32,000 nucleotides of DNA from Candidatus Kuenenia stuttgartensis (lineage in GTDB: Bacteria; Planctomycetota; Brocadiia; Brocadiales; Brocadiaceae), in contig NZ_LT934425.1 of assembly GCF_900232105.1 (NCBI RefSeq), positions 2,520,001 through 2,552,000 on the forward strand, given 5' to 3'. Positions 3,152 through 18,653 of the stretch are shown here, in pieces (position 1 is the stretch's first letter; each line of letters begins with the position of its first letter). The notes beneath the pieces are model-generated. The model did not search any database. It worked only from the letters and a program-made list of their open reading frames with translations, and had not been told where the DNA came from. Both the position numbers and the translations under genes were made by a program.

Positions 3152-3285
3152 GATCTGACCGAGAAGATTATCGAAATCTTCTTTAAAGTTTATAATAACT
3201 TGGTTACGGTTTTCTGGAAAAAGTTTATGAAAATGCAATGATGATAGAATTCAAAAAAGAAGGCATTCACGCTGTATCACAATAA
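3152..3285 (+). pseudogene. GxxExxY-family protein fragment (frameshifted and truncated)
   Basis: DLTEKIIEIFFKVYNNL then, after a 1-nt slip at GG 3202-3203, GYGFLEKVYENAMMIEFKKEGIHAVSQ*. This contains the GxxExxYxxA signature but stops after about 45 of about 125 residues. Confidence 0.5.
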
Positions 3286-3624
3286 TTATTTGTTGTTCGT
3301 GTAAATTTAGAAACCGTTCAAGATTACTGCCAAGCTATAGGACACAGATAACGCAGAGACGACACGGAGAAAGTATTTAAATGCACCTGTGAAAGATGGG
3401 ATTTAGAGATTTGTCCCTTGGTTTTTGCATGTGCCTCTTTGGTTATGTGGCACACACTATGAAGAAAGGAAACGCAACCAATCTTCCCCTTTTGCCGTTG
3501 ATTTCACATAATGATTTTGTTACTTTTGTGTTATGTATAAGTCTTCGACCTTATAAAAACCCTGAACCCAAAATCGGCGAAGAAGAGGCCCATAGAGTTC
3601 ATTGAATCATTTATTAATCATTTA

Positions 3625-5014: not shown

Positions 5015-5659
5015 AAACAAGCATATGACCAGTTGGTAGGCTAGCGTTAAAACCTCCAGCCCCCAATCGTCGCCAGGTATATTTGTTACCAAACAACATC
5101 CCCTTTTAAACCATACGGCTTTCCCGTAGTTAGCGACCCCTGCAGAGTTGCGCTATAGCAGAGAATGGACGTTAATACCATGCAAAGCATCTGGCGATCT
5201 CCAATTGTCATTAGAATTTGTTTCGGTTTCGCGTTCGTGAAGGTTGCAGTTTAATTCCAGTTGCAGGGTTTAATTATTTGGGGTGAAGTTCCGTTATAGG
5301 GAAAAATTGAAAAGGTCTGCCTTCCGGATCGGAGAAATTTATTCGGGAAAAAAGATTGCAGGCAGACCGCCGTTACGCCACGCCATGCAGTCTGTCCCAA
5401 AAATAAAAATGACAGGTGTAAGAGGTAGTTCCCATTCCCTCTCTTTTGTTTTTTTCTTGCTTCAAGGTAATTAATTATATAAAATCTTCAAATTTTGCAA
5501 AAAAGCAAATGTACCTATTTTACCGAAATACCAACAGGCTTGTTTTACGGCATTTCGATAAAAAATACAGTGTTTTTATTCTTTTTTTCTGTAGTTTACA
5601 GCGTAGTAAATTTTTCGGGTATGTCGCAAATTTTTGACTTTGTTGTGTTTGCGGTTTTT

Positions 5660-5737
<78 letters not shown>

Positions 5738-5769
5738 ATTCATTTCAGCTAAGCCTTATATACATTTGT

Positions 5770-5844
5770 GGTGAGCGTAGCTCAGTTGGTTAGAGCATTA
5801 GACTGTGGCTCTAAGGGTCGCGGGTTCGAATCCCGTCGCTCACC
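5770..5844 (+). tRNA. tRNA-His (anticodon GUG) with encoded G-1
   Basis: An extra 5' G precedes acceptor GTGAGCG/CGCTCAC. Anticodon stem is TTAGA/TCTAA with loop CTGTGGC. T loop is TTCGAAT. Confidence 0.9.
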
Positions 5845-6085
5845 CATTTTTTTCAATTCCTGATTGATACATCTTTCGTTATTCTTTAATAATAAAAGAA
5901 CAGCGTATTTAAATACATTAAGTGTCTATTAGCGGTTTTGGACGCCATATTTATTTCGTGATAGAATTTTTGCGGGGTGAAATCAGGTTGACATTTGTCC
6001 TATCTTCTATAATAAATTGCTTGGACTTTATTTTATTGTCCAATTTTTGATGTATGAACGACTGCGCCGACATTGCGTTTTTTTT

Positions 6086-6163
6086 GCGCTCGTAGCTCAA
6101 TTGGATAGAGTGGTGGACTTCGAATCCAAAGGTTGCCAGGTTCAAGTCCTGCCGGGCGCGCCA
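6086..6163 (+). tRNA. tRNA-Arg (anticodon UCG), CCA encoded
   Basis: Acceptor GCGCTCG/CGGGCGC has one T:G pair. The anticodon loop is CTTCGAA and the T loop is TTCAAGT. One mismatch at the base of the anticodon stem and one in the T stem lower confidence slightly. Confidence 0.8.
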
Positions 6164-6193
6164 TTCTTAAATTTTTTCAATAAATAACCTTTT

Positions 6194-6269
6194 GCGCCCT
6201 TAGCTCAGATGGTAGAGCAACTGACTCTTAATCAGTGGGTCGGAGGTTCGATCCCTCCAGGGCGCACCA
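6194..6269 (+). tRNA. tRNA-Lys (anticodon CUU), CCA encoded
   Basis: Acceptor GCGCCCT/AGGGCGC, anticodon stem ACTGA/TCAGT with loop CTCTTAA, T arm GGAGG-TTCGATC-CCTCC. Confidence 0.9.
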
Positions 6270-6490
6270 ATAAGATTGTCGTTTTTAGTACGTCGGGCAT
6301 ATCGTTTAATTGAAATTAAAACAGTGCCATTACGATGAGGGCATTGAAAACTCAATACCTTGCAAATGTAAGATTAAAACTGCTCAGTCGTTGTTTATGA
6401 TGGAAGACAATAGGTCTCTGTTTTAGTAAAACGCGATACTGGCTTAGCAAAATTGCAAGAAGTATTTAAACGTAATTGCTGTTTATTCGG

Positions 6491-6519
6491 TTGATATATT
6501 TTTATGCCGCAATTGTAAT
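6491..6519 (+). promoter_or_regulatory. candidate sigma70-type promoter for tRNA-Leu/tRNA-Gly
   Basis: TTGATA (6491-6496), a 17-nt spacer, then TGTAAT (6514-6519), about 40 nt upstream of tRNA-Leu. This is a pattern match only. Confidence 0.3.
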
Positions 6520-6561
6520 TTTAATTGAGAAATTTTATTTCTTGATTTTAAACAGAGGTCT

Positions 6562-6643
6562 GCGAGGGTGGCGGAACTGGCAGACGCGCAAGACTTAGGA
6601 TCTTGTACCTTAACGGTGTGGGGGTTCGATTCCCCCCCTCGCA
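6562..6643 (+). tRNA. tRNA-Leu (anticodon UAG), class II with long variable arm
   Basis: GCGAGGGTGGCGGAACTGGCAGACGCG resembles bacterial tRNA-Leu. The anticodon stem is CAAGA/TCTTG with loop CTTAGGA. The C-run at 6632-6638 has 7 C where a canonical 5-bp T stem plus 7-bp acceptor needs 8. Confidence 0.85.
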
Positions 6644-6663
6644 TAAATATGCGAATATAAAAA

Positions 6664-6738
6664 GCGGGTGTAGCTCAGTGGTAGAGCATCACGTTGCCAA
6701 CGTGAATGTCGTGGGTTCGAGCCCCATCACCCGCTCCA
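6664..6738 (+). tRNA. tRNA-Gly (anticodon GCC), CCA encoded
   Basis: Acceptor GCGGGTG/CACCCGC, anticodon stem TCACG/CGTGA with loop TTGCCAA, T arm GTGGG-TTCGAGC-CCCAT. Confidence 0.9.
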
Positions 6739-8869: not shown

Positions 8870-9208
8870 ATGTTGATGCATAGAGTGCAAAAACGCGTAA
8901 TGGTTGTTTTGTTAATGTTTGCAGTAGCCTTTATCGTAGGTCAGGGTAACGTTAGTTTTGCAAAGGCGAAGCTGCAAGGGCATGTAAATATTAATACGGC
9001 AACTGAGGCACAATTGGCAATGTTGCCGGGCATTGGTGAAAAACTGGCAAAAGAAATAGTTGCGCATAGAACAAAAATAGGACCTTTCAAAACAACCGGA
9101 GATATTATAAAAGTAAAAGGACTAAAAGATAAAAAGTTTGAAAAATTTAAAGATTTCATAGTTTTGGAAGGCGAAACAACGATAGAAGAGATAAAAGAGA
9201 AGAAGTGA
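8870..9208 (+). CDS. ComEA-like helix-hairpin-helix DNA-binding protein with N-terminal signal/anchor
   Basis: 112 aa with a hydrophobic N-terminus (VMVVLLMFAVAFIV). ININTATEAQLAMLPGIGEKLAKEIVAHR is the ComEA-type HhH motif. GGAGG lies upstream at 8863-8867. Confidence 0.75.
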   Translation: MLMHRVQKRVMVVLLMFAVAFIVGQGNVSFAKAKLQGHVNINTATEAQLAMLPGIGEKLAKEIVAHRTKIGPFKTTGDIIKVKGLKDKKFEKFKDFIVLEGETTIEEIKEKK

Positions 9209-9256
9209 TTGCCTTTTAAAGAATAAATACAATACGAATCTTAGATAGTAAGAAAA

Positions 9257-9293
9257 GAAGGGGCGTCCAAAACAGGCGTCCCTTCTTTGTTTT
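9257..9293 (+). terminator. rho-independent terminator after the ComEA-like gene
   Basis: An 11-bp stem GAAGGGGCGTC (9257-9267) / GGCGTCCCTTC (9275-9285), including two G:U pairs, has a 7-nt loop and is followed by TTTGTTTT. Confidence 0.7.
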
Positions 9294-9537
9294 AAAGTGT
9301 AAGGTTGTTGTAATTAACAAATAGTCGTAACTATTCAGCGTAATCTATTAAACTACCGAAGCACAACTCGTTCTCAAATCTTGTACTGAACATAGTGAAG
9401 TATATGATTGGGTACATAATGGCAATGGAAACTTCATTCGTTGGTTCAGGTTTGTAAACTGAACCAAACGTTTTATACTTTCAATCCCGCCTTCTATTAG
9501 CAGAACAAATTACAAATAAATTCCGGATTCCAACCAG

Positions 9538-9611
9538 TCATCATGTTTCATTTGCAACACCCGGAAACGATCAAAATGGTTTTATAACCATATCGTGTTG
9601 TAGTATCTGTG
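9538..9611 (+). repeat. 74-bp direct repeat, copy 1
   Basis: TCATCATGTTTCATTTGCAACACCCGGAAACGATCAAAATGGTTTTATAACCATATCGTGTTGTAGTATCTGTG matches 10030-10103 with 8 mismatches by my hand count. Confidence 0.85.
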
Positions 9612-9713
9612 CTTAAACTATTTTTTGTAGTCTTACTTTTGAGTCGGAAACATCCGGCATTTCCGTTTCTGTACCGGTTCAAATGTATAGGGCCATCCAA
9701 AGGGCCTCAGCTT

Positions 9714-10016
9714 GTCATTGCAGGTGTTATTTGCAAGGGTCTCGGCTTTGTCATTGCAGGGGGTCTCCGCTTGTCATTGCGAGGGTCTTTTCTGAAGCAA
9801 TCAGTATACTACGAGATATTTCGTGACGTAAGAAACGTCATATCCCGGGAGAAGCAAATTAAGGGTGGCTCAAGGGCTAAAAAAATAGAATTAATTAATG
9901 GAATGAATGCAGGATGGAAGGATCTCTATAAAGGTTTATGAGATTGCTTCGGAAAAGACCCTCGCAATGACAAAACGGATACCCTCGCAATGACAAGCTG
10001 ATGCCCTTGTAATGAC
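9714..10016. repeat. palindromic module with triplicated GTCATTGC(G/A)(A/G)G arms flanking a GIY-YIG remnant
   Basis: The left arm has GTCATTGC at 9714, 9750 and 9773 and ends GTCATTGCGAGGGTCTTTTCTGAAGCAATC (9773-9802). The right arm starts GATTGCTTCGGAAAAGACCCTCGCAATGAC (9942-9971), its reverse complement with 1 mismatch, then has GCAATGAC at 9987 and GTAATGAC at 10009. Confidence 0.85.
9800..9941 (+). pseudogene. C-terminal fragment of a small GIY-YIG nuclease-family protein
   Basis: ..SVYYEIFRDVRNVISREKQIKGGSRAKKIELINGMNAGWKDLYKGL* matches the C-terminal half of small GIY-YIG proteins (..YYE.F.....A..RE.QIKgwsR.KK..LI). The GIY and YIG motifs are missing. The upstream part of ORF 9609-9941 is only a translation of the repeat arms. 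Confidence 0.55.
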
Positions 10017-10029
10017 AAAATAAGTCACC

Positions 10030-10103
10030 TCATCATGTTGCATTTGCAATACCCAGAAACGATGAAAATGGTTTTATAACCATATCATATTGTGGTACCT
10101 GTG
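10030..10103 (+). repeat. 74-bp direct repeat, copy 2
   Basis: See 9538-9611. The orientation is the same, and the two copies bracket the palindromic module. Confidence 0.85.
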
Positions 10104-10175
10104 TTGGGATTTGGGCATTGGAATTTTACCGCAGTACATGGCCCCATTATACACATAAACTCATAGGCTCAGGCT

Positions 10176-10410
10176 GCAAGCCAATGTCATTAAGTTAAGC
10201 AACCTGCCTGAAGAGCCTAAAAAACAATGTAGCCCCTTTAGAGGCAGTCTGTTTGTAGCACAATAAAATTCAACAGGTAAATAGCTCCGTAGGAGCGGCC
10301 TGTATATGATTGACAGGAAGACCGGCCGCTCCTACGGAGCTTATCGGTAATACGTTTTTTTAAAAAACCAAAGTGTTACAATAATTCTTAACTTAATGAC
10401 ATTGGGTTGC
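10176..10410. repeat. 24-bp inverted repeat pair enclosing the long hairpin
   Basis: The reverse complement of GCAAGCCAATGTCATTAAGTTAAG (10176-10199) matches CTTAACTTAATGACATTGGGTTGC (10387-10410) with 1 mismatch. Weaker complementarity extends outward (GGCTCAGGCTGC / GCAACCTGAACC). Confidence 0.8.
10283..10341. repeat. 18-bp perfect stem hairpin with 23-nt loop
   Basis: AGCTCCGTAGGAGCGGCC (10283-10300) pairs perfectly with GGCCGCTCCTACGGAGCT (10324-10341). Confidence 0.9.
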
Positions 10411-10524
10411 AACCTGAACCCGCCGGGAGTCGTGTAATGTTTACGCTGAATAGTTACAAATAGTTTACAGAAGCGCTTTCTATGCTGATTATATCAATGT
10501 GTGTTTTTGGATCGCATGCGTGTC

Positions 10525-12249
10525 TTAATACTGCCTCTTTTTTGGTACAAATGGTCCTATATTTACCGGAGCATAATCAAGCCTGACTCCCTCTTCTGTA
10601 AAATAGGACAACGTATGTTTTAGCCAGTTTGTATCGTCTCTTCCGGGAAAATCCGTGCGAAAATGAGCTCCGCGGCTTTCTTCCCGTGCCAATGCGCCCA
10701 TTAGGCATGCTTCCGCTACATCTAAATTCCCCTTTAGCTCCAATGCCCAAACCAACCCTAAATTTACTCGCGATCCCGTATAATCTAATTTAATTTGTCG
10801 ATACCTTTCCTGTAATGCTTTTATTTCACATACTGCTACCCGCAAGTCAGGGGCATTGCGAAAAATTCCCACCTTAGCATCCATTATTTTATTTAGTTCA
10901 TTTTTAATTGTTACCGGTTTTTCGGCGCCTGTCGATTTACCAATCTTGTCGATGTTTCGTTTTGTTAGCTTTAAGACATCATTGAGGCGATTTTCACTTT
11001 TTTGCCTCTCTGAATTTTGCACGTATTTAGCGGCATTCCCTCCTGCGATTGCGCCAAACACAATAGTATCCAACAGAGAATTTCCACCCAATCTGTTAGC
11101 TCCATGGACACTTATGCAGGCGCTTTCTCCCGCAGCGTACAATCCCTTTATTTTCGTTTCACATTCGATATTGCAGTCAATCCCTCCCATAGTATAATGC
11201 TGACCCGGTTTAATTGGTATAAGGGAATCAACAGGATCTATACCGATAAATTCCATGCATATATCTCTTATGCCGGGTAATCTCTGTAAAATTTTCTCTC
11301 TTCCCAAATGTCTTAAATCCAAAAACACATAACTATCATCATAGCCATACCCCGCCATAATTTCTCTTACGATATTTCTTGCAATAATGTCCCTGGGCGC
11401 GATTTCCATATCTTTTCGGGAATCATCATATTTTTCAAGAAATCGCTCGCCTTTATTATTCAGCAAAAATCCACCTTCTCCACGACACCCTTCTGTGATT
11501 AAAATATTTTTCCCCAAAGTAGTTGTGGGATGAAATTGAATGAACTCCATGTCTTTCAATGGCACGCCAGCCCAATACGGGATTGCCATGCCCAGCCCTG
11601 TATTAATCAAAGCATTTGTTGTATTGCCATATATCCTACCGGACCCTCCCGTTGCAAAAATTACTGCTCCGGCCTGTAACGCCTCAATCTCCCCGCTAAT
11701 GATATCCATCACAATCACACCGACACAAACGCCTTCTTCGATTACCAGGTCTGTAACCAGCCATTCATCATACATCACCATTTCTTCCCGTTCTGATGCA
11801 TGTTTCAATTGAATGATTTGTTGATACAGGGTATGTAACAATGCATGTCCTGTCTTGTCTGAGGCATAGCAAGCCCTCGGGAATCCTGCTCCGCCAAAAG
11901 GCCTTTGTGCGATCCGCCCCTCCGCTGTCCTGCTGAAAGGACATCCCCAATGCTCCAACTCATAAATACGATCTGCCGCATCTTTTGTCATCCGTATTAC
12001 TGCATCCTGGTCCGCCAGATAATCACTCCCCTTTACGGTGTCAAATGCATGTTTTTCCCAGGTGTCATAAATCCCGCGGAAATGGTTTCCCAAAGGGGCG
12101 TTTATTCCCCCTTGTGCTGCGATAGAATGAGATCGCAGTGGATGTACCTTGGAAATTATTGCGATCTTAACGTTGTGGCGATTTATTTCAATGGCCGCCC
12201 TTAAGCCTGCTAATCCCCCGCCGACAACAATAACTTCATATCGTTTCAT
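10525..12249 (-). CDS. sdhA: succinate dehydrogenase / fumarate reductase flavoprotein subunit
   Basis: Motifs are VVGGGLAGLRAA (FAD fold), RSHSIAAQGGINA (covalent-FAD His), FHPT, CRGEGG and HGANRLGGNSLLD. I prefer the ATG at 12249 (MKRYEVIVVGGG); the ORF-track start at 12267 adds 6 residues. Confidence 0.9.
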   Translation of the reverse strand: MKRYEVIVVGGGLAGLRAAIEINRHNVKIAIISKVHPLRSHSIAAQGGINAPLGNHFRGIYDTWEKHAFDTVKGSDYLADQDAVIRMTKDAADRIYELEHWGCPFSRTAEGRIAQRPFGGAGFPRACYASDKTGHALLHTLYQQIIQLKHASEREEMVMYDEWLVTDLVIEEGVCVGVIVMDIISGEIEALQAGAVIFATGGSGRIYGNTTNALINTGLGMAIPYWAGVPLKDMEFIQFHPTTTLGKNILITEGCRGEGGFLLNNKGERFLEKYDDSRKDMEIAPRDIIARNIVREIMAGYGYDDSYVFLDLRHLGREKILQRLPGIRDICMEFIGIDPVDSLIPIKPGQHYTMGGIDCNIECETKIKGLYAAGESACISVHGANRLGGNSLLDTIVFGAIAGGNAAKYVQNSERQKSENRLNDVLKLTKRNIDKIGKSTGAEKPVTIKNELNKIMDAKVGIFRNAPDLRVAVCEIKALQERYRQIKLDYTGSRVNLGLVWALELKGNLDVAEACLMGALAREESRGAHFRTDFPGRDDTNWLKHTLSYFTEEGVRLDYAPVNIGPFVPKKRQY

Positions 12250-18577: not shown

Positions 18578-18653
18578 GGGGGCATAGCTCAGTTGGGAGA
18601 GCGTCTCGTTCGCAATGAGAAGGTCAGGGGTTCGAATCCCCTTGTCTCCACCA
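18578..18653 (+). tRNA. tRNA-Ala (anticodon CGC), CCA encoded
   Basis: Acceptor GGGGGCA/TGTCTCC includes the G3:U70 Ala identity pair. The anticodon loop is TTCGCAA. The T arm is AGGGG-TTCGAAT-CCCCT. Confidence 0.9.

Follow-up and report, generated by a model that had tools for sequence, protein, structure and literature searches.

Here we describe a 1131-bp non-coding element that lies between two convergent genes in a 32,000-nt stretch of DNA from Candidatus Kuenenia stuttgartensis (the window, to whose positions coordinates refer unless another contig is named). On the left of the element, a ComEA-like helix-hairpin-helix gene (110-112 aa) ends at 9208 and is followed by a terminator-type hairpin at 9254-9288; on the right, sdhA is encoded on the minus strand, with its stop codon at 10525, 67 nt from the element's right edge. 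The spacer between the two genes measures 1316 bp, and contigs identical to the window over 9201-10700 are found in JGI 3300029304, GCA_002418245.1 and GCA_900232175.1. We consider it very probable that this 1.13-kb non-coding stretch is a miniature inverted-repeat transposable element (MITE) that lacks a transposase, has ends of the IS66 family and holds two other small repeats inside it.

The element is bounded by terminal inverted repeats (TIRs) of 17 bp, GTAACTATTCAGCGTAA on the left (9327-9343) and TTACGCTGAATAGTTAC on the right (10441-10457). They match at 17/17 positions, as a previous reading made from the letters of the window alone (the sequence-only reading) had stated, and start with GTAA (GTAAC). 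With up to three mismatches allowed, the TIR 18-mer occurs at two places only in the 32-kb window, and two such matches were obtained in 0 of 100 shuffles, which rules out a chance inverted repeat. The sequence-only reading had also noted the heptamer AAATAGT at both flanks (9319-9325 and 10458-10464) and proposed a 7-bp target duplication separated from the left repeat by one spacer base. The heptamers are indeed there, but the target site duplication (TSD) is 8 bp long, not 7, and this accounts for the extra base on the left. Its left copy, AAATAGTC (9319-9326), and its right copy, AAATAGTT (10458-10465), agree at seven of eight positions. A strain that is ~5% diverged in the left flank (L036; GCA_027493735.1) carries this insertion too, and there both flanks read AAATAGTT (8/8), so that the C at 9326, the last base of the left copy, is a later T-to-C substitution in the window strain. 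The left TIR of L036 is itself mutated, to GTGAC.

Within these ends we identified a 338-bp backbone, composed of a left arm (9327-9537), a middle segment (10104-10179) and a right arm (10407-10457), into which two insertions of 566 and 227 bp (passengers 1 and 2) are set, giving the total of 1131 bp. The nested architecture that had been suspected from the sequence is therefore present as a backbone with two passengers. The left arm, aligned by BLAST to copies in Candidatus Kuenenia sp. Bin_40 and in metagenomes, includes a small hairpin (9441-9467) and a 22-nt segment (9383-9404) that has no counterpart in the Bin_40 copies. The middle segment ends with the 5' half of a second hairpin (GGCTCAGGC, 10166-10174) and the loop TGCAA, and the right arm includes its 3' half (CCTGAACC, 10413-10420); canonical MITE copies have the short hairpin GGTTCAGGT-TGCAA-ACCTGAACC.

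The same termini recur in many places. Reference genomes were scanned with a pattern consisting of the TIR and a few degenerate subterminal bases, which returned 18 stretches, 17 of them in Bin_40; BLAST together with a mismatch-tolerant search brought the TIR ends in that genome to about 30. Where ends are paired they delimit copies of 316-428 bp in Bin_40 (316-443 bp for canonical copies), and these align over their full length with window positions 9327-9537, 10104-10182 and 10405-10457. Perfect 8-bp duplications, each of a different sequence, flank five copies: AAAAAATC (L023), TATTTTTT (L026), CATGAATC (L030), TATGTTTA (L032) and GTTTTTTC (L051). Additional copies are present in K. stuttgartiensis-type assemblies (L045 and L046) and on metagenome contigs (L049-L051). 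The metagenome scan with the TIR pattern yielded four stretches and missed the known JGI contig L001, so the collection scanned holds little Kuenenia. The family appears to be restricted to Kuenenia, and a search of the literature turned up no paper on this Kuenenia MITE family.

Two further sets of matches lie outside this genus. The bare 17-mer has four matches in viral contigs, which we attribute to chance, as no similarity extends beyond them. One exact match to the 24-nt TIR pattern occurs in a metagenome-assembled genome of Methylococcales (L028; JAZGEP010000119.1, 4862-4886) next to housekeeping genes (lepA, lepB and a degP-like gene); the stretch has no second end and no transposase, and the match is either chance or a solo end.

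Assembly breakpoints coincide with the termini as well. Independent short-read contigs stop at 9354/9355 on the ComEA-like side and at 10431 on the sdhA side. We take these contigs to be k=31 graph assemblies, in which case the stops place the boundaries of a repeat at ~9326 and 10460, that is, at the ends of the element. The family can thus be seen to break short-read assemblies at its ends.

Orthologous loci in relatives lack the insertion. Two Kuenenia-like species (L039 and L040), in which the ComEA-like protein is 77% identical, have the same gene order and no element; their spacers are 164 bp (L039) and 82 bp (L040), compared with 1316 bp in the window, and L039 has a CAAATAG motif at the position of the window target. 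The diverged strain introduced above carries the same MITE at the same site (L036; JAOSKF010000018.1, 3064-4333). The closest other relative, with a ComEA-like protein 95% identical (L044; GCA_024654045.1, JANLIE010000600.1), is uninformative on occupancy: its contig ends 79 nt past the gene (5339-5418), directly after the terminator hairpin and 38 nt before the position where the MITE starts in the window. Taken together, three of the points on which the sequence-only reading had made its MITE-like interpretation depend have turned out in its favor, namely related termini elsewhere (~30 ends in Bin_40), duplications at other copies (8 bp, at five of them) and empty-site variants (L039 and L040); an autonomous relative, which it had proposed to look for, is taken up below.

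These comparisons also bear on whether the region might instead be a host-selected structured non-coding region, serving as terminators, a small RNA or a regulatory platform. The many hairpins between convergent genes, the two terminator-like sites inside the element and the separation of sdhA from a terminator hairpin that is shared in related species would all suit such a function. We nevertheless regard it as extremely unlikely, as copies of the sequence, with target duplications, stand at unrelated loci, and the orthologous spacer of relatives lacks it. A permissive Rfam scan gave nothing above noise in 9250-10520 (sub-threshold matches to eukaryotic miRNAs were read as chance), and at gathering thresholds Rfam finds in the window only tRNAs and a group II intron piece, all outside the element. 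Promoter-like and terminator-like sites are as numerous as expected from shuffles, and the folding of the 74-nt direct repeats described below is not significant and indistinguishable from that of shuffled sequences (z -1.0 to -1.6). The element, we conclude, has no coding capacity and in all likelihood no function for the host. The insertion does put sdhA 1.2 kb from the bidirectional terminator hairpin that relatives use, so sdhA transcripts may be expected to end inside the element or to read through it; at most, the hairpins of the element now serve as the end points of sdhA transcription.

The 17-bp ends of the MITE also occur on an autonomous element in other organisms. On a metagenome contig (L048; Ga0164318_10044400), GTAACTATTCAGCGTAATCTAT occurs 17 nt past the stop codon of an open reading frame (ORF) that runs off the contig end and matches PF03050 (DDE_Tnp_IS66) with E 1.8e-37. 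A full-length relative of this ORF, the 492-aa protein P0112, is 88% identical to it, matches the NCBIfam IS66 transposase model NF033517 at 256.7 bits (cut-off 180) and is encoded in a 1606-bp single-gene element, both ends of which are perfect copies of the window TIR; one contig (L055) is exactly this element, end to end. The left TIR of the window is identical to the ends of this insertion sequence (IS) in L055, L054 and L053 and to the L048 end. Over a longer stretch, the left end of the window element matches the IS end on the side of the transposase C-terminus for 22 nt, and thus corresponds to the right end of the IS, distal to the transposase start, while at the right end 18 nt agree with the other end of the IS. 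The single-gene layout of the 1606-bp IS is presumably that of the ISfinder ISBst12 subgroup, and on this comparison of sequences we assign the MITE ends, putatively, to a single-gene, ISBst12-like IS of the IS66 family.

The ORF list and Pfam reveal no DDE_Tnp_IS66 transposase within 9327-10457, and the element is therefore not an IS66 member itself but only a non-autonomous user of such ends. The sequence-only reading had proposed that an autonomous relative might encode either a transposase or an intact GIY-YIG nuclease; the former was found, in an IS with identical TIRs, and a nuclease as mobilizer was not supported, given that the ends imply an IS66-family DDE transposase. The IS66-type copies were found in organisms of 25-27% G+C and not in Kuenenia. 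An IS from unrelated low-GC organisms has exactly these 17-bp ends, which hints at horizontal spread of the transposase. K. stuttgartiensis MBR1 is reported to express an IS66-family transposase, KSMBR_3038 (PMC7438415). In Bin_40, no transposase lies beside the unpaired TIRs in L025 and L023. On the low-GC L048 contig, an IS21-family pair at 165-2451 (ORFs of 509 and 270 aa, identified from sequence) adjoins the IS66-family element.

Several observations weigh against the reading of the element as a transposase-less MITE with IS66-family ends. No duplication flanks three of the nine paired MITE copies (L019, L022 and L049), nor the sole IS copy for which both flanks are available (L054). Similarity between the MITE and the IS does not extend past ~22 nt from the ends, and hence the MITE did not arise from that IS simply by internal deletion. 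In Kuenenia, no autonomous IS bounded by these ends was found, with a scan pattern that, by including subterminal bases, would miss an IS with differing subtermini. The empty sites belong to other species and not to a K. stuttgartiensis strain, the insertion is present in every K. stuttgartiensis-like assembly seen, and no recent movement is documented. The element would be multi-copy in the source population, at a copy number that is inferred and not counted. Even so, the repeated termini, the duplications, the empty sites in relatives and the autonomous relative together bear out the MITE-like interpretation, and we view the element as layered but ordinary selfish DNA.

Passenger 1 (566 bp, plus strand, 9538-10103) is a partial tandem repeat, F-X-F', inserted at the backbone site CCAA(A/C)CAG| and absent from canonical MITE copies. 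The first copy of F spans 9538-9651 (plus strand), and the second (10030-10103, plus strand) is truncated to 74 nt; the 74-bp direct repeats that had been noted previously are the edges of this tandem repeat, 9538-9611 and 10030-10103, and are 89% identical. Between the F copies, the remnant of a GIY-YIG nuclease gene is enclosed by inverted arrays of GTCATTGCGAGGG units (3 + 3). The left array (9700-9802, plus strand) consists of GTCATTGC(G/A)AGG half-units and ends with the complete unit GTCATTGCGAGGGTCTTTTCTGAAGCAATC (9773-9802); the right array is in inverted orientation (9942-10019, minus strand), with a complete unit at 9942-9971 and half-units at 9982-9994 and 10004-10016. Counted as GTCATTGC(G/A)AGG-type units, there are three on the plus strand (9702-9791) and three on the minus strand (9958-10018), in agreement with the triplicated module of the sequence-only reading. 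Two alternative explanations of this part of the element were set aside: a structured hairpin in the 74-nt repeat is not borne out by fold energies, and an IS200/IS605-type (PATE-like) origin, suggested by the direct-repeat ends, found no support beyond the layout.

The nuclease remnant (9804-9941, plus strand) comprises the C-terminal 45 codons and the stop. It retains residues ~52-97, whereas the catalytic N-terminal half with the GIY and YIG motifs is deleted. A mechanical ORF of 110 aa (9609-9941) is a read-through of the repeats, without any match in Pfam, so the earlier statement that the segment holds no intact ORF stands in substance. The 46-aa remnant matches the Pfam GIY-YIG family at E 0.1 only; its homology was therefore established by a protein search, which retrieved GIY-YIG proteins of 86-97 aa from Jettenia and Brocadia. 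The same search gave a dozen Kuenenia “proteins” of 38-77 aa, all cut at one residue, and the deletion junction GAAGCAATC|AGTATACT is common to 5/5 Kuenenia copies examined, indicating that one deletion derivative multiplied. The GIY-YIG piece is thus a dead passenger and not the mobilizing enzyme, and the 56-72-aa remnants are an example of the spurious “hypothetical protein” calls that this MITE family yields.

Passenger 1 sits at an identical backbone junction, CCAAACAG|TCATCATG, in L045 and L046, and the F repeat of L045 is 117 nt long. The number of tandem units varies at the window locus itself, from 1.15 in the window to 2.15 (F-X-F-X-F') in L036; unequal crossing-over, Campbell-type integration at F or a concatemeric intermediate would all fit the origin of the F-X tandem. 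In L047 passenger 1 is rearranged and is surrounded by MITE fragments that are rearranged as well. Comparison of the window with L045 gave identities of 87-92% for the backbone and 94-95% for the passenger, a divergence compatible with, but no proof of, a single composite progenitor. The exact 56-aa remnant was found at this locus only, and the composite is therefore not elsewhere at 100% identity. Other insertions have entered copies of the element. An additional inverted-repeat element, 236 bp long (3170-3405; ends CAGAACTCCTGA, flanks ACTTT), interrupts the first F copy of L036. The left MITE hairpin has an insert of 25 nt in its loop in both L022 and L045. Another composite MITE copy, in L045 (GCA_900232175.1, OCTL01000050.1, 1841-2660), has a fragment of an IS110-family transposase directly next to its left hairpin (GGTT|CAGGTTTG), which suggests an IS110-type insertion into the MITE hairpin.

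An intact relative of the dead gene is found in Brocadia sp. (L052; WBVH01000525.1). Read from an upstream ATG, it codes for 97 aa; it matches PF01541 (E 1e-15) and lies between inverted GTCATTGCGAG...GAAGCAATC units (960-1347). A gene-less hairpin of two such units (800-872) is located 150 nt upstream and has the same 40-nt tail, so that the hairpin and the gene locus look like empty and filled versions of one repeat. This gene is relevant to the view that the window region is a decayed autonomous GIY-YIG mobile element, with the 17-bp TIRs as its own ends and the nuclease as its mobilizer. A GIY-YIG remnant with flanking inverted repeats does stand at the center of the region, and the repeat-gene-repeat layout has been noted as IS-like for the Ssn family of nucleases (PMC11893778). 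However, the intact Brocadia gene is flanked by GTCATTGCGAG...GAAGCAATC units and not by the 17-bp TIR, the TIR belongs to the IS66-family transposase element, and the canonical TIR-bounded copies (316-428 bp) hold no GIY-YIG sequence at all. We think this view is almost certainly wrong.

A narrower proposal concerns passenger 1 itself, which might be a decayed representative of a class of mobile elements, so far undescribed, that Ssn-like GIY-YIG single-strand nucleases drive. We judge this to be very unlikely, though several observations would fit it. The module made of the F spacer, the inverted GTCATTGCGAG...GAAGCAATC repeats and the gene is present at 1.15, 1.16 and 2.15 head-to-tail units, every Kuenenia copy comes from one deletion derivative that still multiplied, and passenger 1 is always beside CCAAACAG. 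Such a structure would be expected if a rolling-circle or circular single-stranded intermediate had been cut at hairpins and inserted. If the proposal were true, the Ssn family would gain a transposon-like life cycle that was merely hypothesized by its discoverers (PMC11893778).

Passenger 2 (227 bp, 10180-10406) has 20-bp TIRs of its own, (G/C)CCAATGTCATTAAGTTAAG, at 10180-10199 and 10387-10406. It occupies the loop of the backbone hairpin, with (C/T)TGCAA on both sides. The 24-bp inverted pair and the 18-bp perfect hairpin described in the sequence-only reading both belong to this part of the element: the pair, measured here, extends to 34 nt at 91% (10166-10199 and 10387-10420) with a perfect 19-nt core, and the hairpin, inside passenger 2, to 21 nt at 95% with 18 nt perfect (10283-10303 and 10321-10341). 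Passenger-2 TIRs are found at the same point of the loop in three Bin_40 copies (L030, L032 and L033), where they enclose a different interior of ~65 nt. The interior found in the window recurs in L018 and L047, with a further insert in the loop of the 10283-10341 hairpin. Hairpin loops inside the MITE may thus act as landing pads for further small elements.

These findings raise the question of whether the passengers were carried along with the MITE or entered its copies independently, by site-specific insertion at the TTGCAA loop and at CCAAACAG|G. Independent entry would explain how passenger-2 TIRs with unrelated interiors come to occupy exactly one position of the loop both in the window and in copies from another species (Bin_40), and TTGCAA is doubled, on both sides of passenger 2. 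It is also consistent with hairpin loops of this MITE family repeatedly holding different inserts (including the one abutted by an IS110-family element in L045) and with passenger 1 of L047, where the 8-nt left flank is unchanged and the rest of the surroundings differ. Set against this, backbone and passenger divergence are similar between copies, L047 lies amid rearranged MITE debris and may descend from the same composite, and no free-standing copy of passenger 1 or 2 was seen among the loci examined, all of which were chosen via the MITE, so that a pattern of “always in the MITE” is biased. We consider independent entry rather unlikely, but a good deal less so than the other alternatives weighed here.

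On the reading that we prefer, of a transposase-less MITE with IS66-family ends that spread as a composite, the history of the element could be as follows. The progenitor of the K. stuttgartiensis subfamily would earlier have gained passenger 1, in which the cognate repeat units form inverted arrays on either side of a dead GIY-YIG gene; passenger 2 would have settled in the hairpin loop of the MITE itself, and the whole composite would then have spread as a unit. In the lineage leading to K. stuttgartiensis, a backbone that probably already carried passenger 1 would have been inserted into the selectively quiet spacer between the ComEA-like gene and sdhA, after the split from the L039 and L040 species and before the sampled K. 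stuttgartiensis strains diverged. An IS66-family transposase acting in trans may have bound both ends and integrated the element, cutting the target AAATAGTT with an 8-bp stagger, the repair of which would have made the duplication. No new mechanism or host function is suggested by any of these findings.

Other features of the window lie away from the element. A decayed group II intron is indicated by an ORF fragment matching RVT_1 (E 8e-9, 1153-1527) and, 700 nt downstream of it, an Rfam match to the Intron_gpII domain V/VI (47.3 bits, 2252-2405); the window holds no intact reverse transcriptase ORF for this remnant, and long inverted repeats occur just upstream of it (573-600/804-831 and 842-864/974-996). 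A cluster of six tRNAs (5660-6735) lies upstream of the trigger factor, ClpP and ComEA-like genes, and one further tRNA is found at 18578-18650.

Ssn nucleases are accompanied by flanking NTS/SRM repeats, the Neisseria repeat being CGTCATT...GGGAATC (Chenal et al. 2025, PMC11893778). The intact relative of passenger 1 is likewise a single-domain GIY-YIG protein of ~97 aa, its gene stands between inverted repeats that start with (C)GTCATT and end with AATC, with gene-less copies nearby (L052), and the window keeps the repeat-gene-repeat layout in its arrays (9700-9802 on the plus strand and 9942-10019 on the minus strand). In contrast to Ssn loci, the gene of the window copy has lost its catalytic half, the units are amplified into half-unit arrays, and passenger 1 is organized as a partial tandem repeat that includes a spacer element, F, of 74-117 nt. 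No match to the published SRM expression, HGTCWYN(0-2)YYVSBRHN(0-5)WNVSBRGN(0-2)RNCYNB, occurs in the window, L045 or L052, and only the GTCATT...AATC frame is common. The best match among solved structures is the UPF0213 protein 1ZG2 (E 0.008), Pfam returns the generic PF01541, and NCBIfam returns nothing specific. By analogy we therefore describe the nuclease module of passenger 1 as Ssn-like and do not call it Ssn, and its membership of cd10448 is putative. An Ssn-type nuclease and repeat cassette, or a dead derivative of one, would thus exist in Brocadiaceae.

The ends of the element are those of one IS66-family IS. The 17-bp TIR is identical to that of the 1606-bp IS (L055 and L054, encoding P0112), including the GTAA start, and 1-5 further subterminal bases agree; the 8-bp target duplication is typical of the family, whose members have 20-30 bp inverted repeats starting with GTAAGCG and 8-bp direct repeats (PMC11946415). 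The inverted repeat of the window differs in being 17 bp long and starting with GTAAC, so that GTAA is common to both and GCG is not.

The closest parallels to the element as a whole are the bacterial MITEs, such as the Correia/NEMIS elements of Neisseria, MITEAba12 and the Coxiella MITEs (PMC10969869, PMC11602168), and our results add an IS66-type family from an anammox planctomycete to the few bacterial MITEs whose parent family has been identified. Like these, the window element is short and non-coding, has TIRs in common with an IS and a target duplication of fixed length, occurs in many intergenic copies and contains internal hairpins. It differs from them in that the window copy has been inflated to 1131 bp by two nested passengers.

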